Assembly (NCBI GenBank): GCA_029552065.1
Contig: JAKPEG010000068.1
Span: 3,033 to 67,032 of the forward strand
Reading direction: 5' to 3'
DNA: 64,000 nucleotides
Source of the DNA: Actinomycetes bacterium
GTDB lineage: Bacteria > Actinomycetota > Actinomycetes > Actinomycetales > Dermatophilaceae
The letters are not shown here. The text below continues a report on this DNA, generated by a model with database tools.

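Follow-up and report, generated by a model that had tools for sequence, protein, structure and literature searches.

A pattern search of the 64-kb window (G+C 71.7%) returned 67 exact copies of GTATGCCG, 37 on the plus strand and 30 on the minus strand, and this machine recount matched the count and positions of the sequence-only reading in every detail. Dinucleotide-preserving shuffles of the window yield a mean of 1.05 copies (maximum 5), and Markov models of order 0-3 predict 1.1-3.4; orders 4, 5 and 6 predict 19, 45 and 64, a circular expectation, since most sub-word occurrences come from the octamer itself (89% of GTATG, 97% of GTATGCC and 89% of TATGCCG occurrences lie within it). A better null for genes, in which proteins and the window's own codon usage are fixed and synonymous codons are redrawn, gives 3.5 ± 1.7 in-gene copies (maximum 8) versus 58 observed, bearing out the earlier claim that the word is not a codon artefact. 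It ranks second by frequency among all 8-mers of the window, its one-mismatch neighbours stand at background level, and its flanks are nearly information-free except for the next base (C 35, T 18, G 12, A 2). The hyperabundance is genuine and robust.

Since the octamer is contained in the Illumina P7 adapter, a text search for it gives thousands of primer matches, and text and sequence searches alike are noisy. An adapter or assembly artefact is rejected: no adapter extension was found around the copies in the window, ordinary housekeeping genes (XPB helicase, citrate synthase, the Pnkp-Hen1 pair, ABC transporters and regulators) carry copies in frame, and seven same-species contigs from independent metagenome assemblies, 99.6-99.9% identical to the window, keep every copy. 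The extended form GTATGCCGT has seven bases (ATGCCGT) in common with the neisserial 12-mer DNA uptake signal AT-DUS, ATGCCGTCTGAA; its overlaps with AT-DUS and with the adapter appear coincidental. Features of the window are as follows.

8952-10586, minus strand: XPB-type helicase
12316-14637, minus strand: 773-aa protein, near the helicase
28355-28387: short direct duplication gccgtacttca-c-gccgtacttca, adjoining a non-coding copy of the word at 28388
29200-29431, minus strand: actinobacterial sRNA Ms_IGR-5
32191-32357, plus strand: c-di-AMP riboswitch, upstream of an NlpC/P60 gene
57230-61172, minus strand: Pnkp-Hen1 RNA repair pair (polynucleotide kinase-phosphatase/ligase and Hen1 RNA 2'-O-methyltransferase), with six copies of the word
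62431-62503, minus strand: tRNA gene, with a copy of the word 10 bp from its 5' end

The XPB-type helicase and the 773-aa protein have Helicase_C_3 as their sole common domain, and between them lie a small ORF and an HMGL-like gene on the opposite strand; the arrangement, with DUF3027 and cold-shock genes nearby, is also present in a same-species contig (L086), and orthologues of both proteins occur in many related loci.

According to our own codon-statistics gene caller, 58 copies in the window are genic (29 sense, 29 antisense) and nine non-coding. The frames used are Ala-Tyr (CG/GCA-TAC, 23), Tyr-Ala (G/TAT-GCC/G, 20), Gly-Met-Pro (7), Arg-His-Thr (4), Val-Cys-Arg (2) and Gly-Ile with ATA (2); this six-frame use, together with sense/antisense parity, excludes a peptide or RNA motif. 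In a set pooling the window with 14 related loci, 116 copies are sense and 89 antisense (p = 0.07). GC skew is positive over the whole window (+0.05 overall), and the 37:30 split therefore reflects no leading-strand preference; about 70% of the coding DNA here is on the minus strand, and the skew does not follow gene orientation. Across the window and the 11 related loci with absolute GC skew > 0.02, the G-rich and C-rich strands carry 103 and 106 copies, in agreement with the earlier view that the word has no strand skew and is unlike the polar motifs Chi and KOPS, which are excluded as readings by this absence of polarity.

In the pooled set, the spacing of copies is random and follows an exponential distribution (CV 0.91), and non-coding DNA carries 1.52 per kb versus 0.71 in coding DNA; in a second set, collected around citrate synthase, the values are 2.56 and 1.37 per kb, although the gene caller may miss genes there. 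Non-coding copies are followed by T in 21 of 42 cases versus a T background of 14% (p = 4e-8). Close pairs are not in excess (30 versus 29 expected) and tend to be inverted (22:8, p = 0.016); long hairpins 3' of genes arise from several of them, in the window from the pair at 32044-32067. Over the genes of the window and the 14 word-rich loci together, copies are rarer in the final fifth (deciles 9 and 10 hold 8 each, the other deciles about 23), and the composition of C-terminal regions may lie behind this scarcity. A REP or MITE element is excluded, because the conserved flanks seen in true repeats of other genomes are absent.

L004, 876-960, 1174-1260 and 11687-11770: REP-/MITE-like intergenic hairpins GCAAAGCGGG...CCCGCTTTGC with conserved flanks, one loop holding CGGCATAC
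L019, 2548-2606, 18800-18858 and 19003-19061: REP-/MITE-like intergenic repeat of ~50 bp around CGCTAGCG, conserved flanks
L055, 2548-2660 and 6371-6520: REP-/MITE-like intergenic repeats GATCTTGAC/GTCAAGATC, clustered and iteron-like, conserved flanks
L058 (Nocardioides sp. R-C-SC26), 20116-20774: seemingly another hyperabundant octamer, ACCGGGAT with 43 copies, rejected as a dispersed word, being a perfect 15-bp tandem array of ACCGGACCGGGATCC (44 copies)

With the XPB helicase as probe, we compared 80 loci of up to 21.7 kb each from species-representative genomes, the best matches (~85% amino-acid identity) being Dermatophilaceae/Intrasporangiaceae. Fifteen of the 80 carry the word at 0.4-1.25 per kb; these word-rich loci belong to Lapillicoccus, Pedococcus, Segeticoccus, Arsenicicoccus bolidensis, Intrasporangium, Knoellia, Terrabacter lapilli, Flexivirga caeni and several MAGs. 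Those of Austwickia, Kineosphaera limosa, Piscicoccus intestinalis, Kribbia dieselivorans, Phycicoccus sp. Soil748 and a Terracoccus MAG are word-poor (0-0.09 per kb), and about 50 loci of Nocardioides, Cellulomonas and others hold ≤ 0.12 per kb. On a neighbour-joining tree of this single protein, word-poor lineages are interspersed among word-rich ones, which suggests repeated loss of the trait; Terracoccus has one relic copy, at a site common to 10 word-rich genomes. Citrate synthase, an independent genomic region 17 kb from XPB in the window, was searched against metagenome contigs, and its eight closest lineages carry the word at 1.3-1.9 per kb. The abundance is thus the trait of a lineage.

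Between word-rich genomes 74-87% identical in DNA, the word is kept in place in 47% of cases, an arbitrary 8-mer of these alignments in 18%; the pairwise counts are pseudo-replicated. Orthologous sites that carry C rather than G at position 1 mostly return to TAC for Tyr (45 TAC versus 24 TAT), and the rare Tyr codon therefore depends on the complete context. Two ninth-base dialects occur among close relatives represented by metagenome contigs (L219 and L223 versus L220-L222): C predominates in L219 (26/29, GTATGCCGC) and L223 (17/22), and T in L221 (20/30, the form GTATGCCGT, with some G), L222 (20/29) and also L007; the window is of the C type, more weakly than L219 and L223. In Flexivirga caeni (L045, 1-21632), position 6 is free (GTATGNCG: C ~16-17, A 13, G ~11-12, T 6), all four middle bases being enriched (2.1 per kb in total) with positions 7-8 invariant; position 6 is also free in L262 and partly free in L012, L231 and L261. 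Such one-base, lineage-following dialects would be expected from a vertically inherited, slowly co-evolving DNA-binding protein.

The C-variant GTACGCCG, which uses preferred codons (TAC-GCC or GCG-TAC), occurs at 36-38 per 100 kb in word-poor relatives, and word-rich genomes hold 5.4 of it versus 78 of GTATGCCG per 100 kb. Where word-poor genomes have GTACGCCG, 26% of word-rich orthologues are GTATGCCG; mutual conservation among word-poor genomes is 28%. An origin of the word from a single hypermutable cytosine is ruled out on five grounds. First, in the Gly-Met-Pro frame position 4 is set by ATG, and the word arises through the rare GGT codon (7/12 in the first set and 12/12 in the second versus 0/35 in word-poor genomes, Fisher 3e-11); in the Arg-His-Thr frame it arises through CAT in place of CAC. 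Second, GTATGCCG reaches 2-4 times the abundance that its precursor attains anywhere. Third, peptides shift: Tyr-Ala rises by 25% (2-fold in a G...G context), Arg-His-Thr about 3-fold, and Gly-Met-Pro 3.4-fold in the densest loci. Fourth, the orthologue alignment proposed in the sequence-only reading shows that word-poor sites usually differ at 2-4 positions, first codon positions included, with an amino-acid change from R-H-R to R-H-T at an XPB site. Fifth, enrichment is highest in non-coding DNA. What is favoured is therefore the complete word. Transversions at several positions and the asymmetry of the site are difficult to square with a methyl-directed repair ratchet.

The whole GTACGNCG family of C-variants, including N = A, G and T, is depleted in word-rich genomes (the window and the word-rich loci from L001 to L048), ~5-fold relative to all other loci and ~2-fold relative to same-family word-poor genera. 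Its N = A, G and T members show no T-version build-up in strict-dialect genomes; escape variants CTACGNCG and GTAGGNCG, not T-forms, replace the family, and sites GTACGTCG and GTACGACG have orthologues GTAGGTCG or CTACGNCG. NCC-TAC stands in place of NCG-TAC in the Thr-Tyr, Pro-Tyr and Ser-Tyr frames.

Ratios of NCG:NCC before TAC, word-rich versus other genomes (Fisher p)
Thr: 3:21 versus 77:47 (8e-6)
Pro: 2:9 versus 53:22 (0.0013)
Ser: 1:5 versus 49:12 (0.003)

A hypermutable base by itself would add T-forms rather than remove C-forms relative to escape variants, so the C-form is apparently selected against, in what looks like real selection. GTAC itself is scarce in some genomes (window 0.67 per kb, Arsenicicoccus L008 0.35, versus ~2 in relatives), and together with the GTACGNCG depletion this hints that a methylation-, restriction- or nuclease-linked component may be involved.

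Only two kinds of process move all positions together: transmission bias, in which alleles with the word would be favoured through uptake or transfer and then recombination, and ordinary selection, which would act on each copy as a binding site. We tentatively favour the former, with a probability of roughly 0.4 that the word works most like a self-recognition word of the DUS/USS (DNA uptake signal) type maintained by transmission bias; a TraB/FtsK-type translocase word would be a variant of the transfer-bias idea. A selected site resembling the cyanobacterial motif HIP1 is possible; HIP1 is the closest precedent and is itself unexplained (PMC5861425), and a preprint reports that it raises transformation and recombination in a methylation-dependent manner. 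Searches of the open literature found no description of the hyperabundance of GTATGCCG, consistent with the earlier statement that no actinobacterial equivalent has been described. Word-rich, word-poor and different-dialect lineages coexist in the family, so that the responsible gene should be discoverable by profiling. The word differs from the DUS and USS families in sequence and in expected receptor and is not a member of either. Its dialects and word-poor members parallel the Neisseriaceae, which have eight DUS dialects and some members without the signal (PMC3630211).
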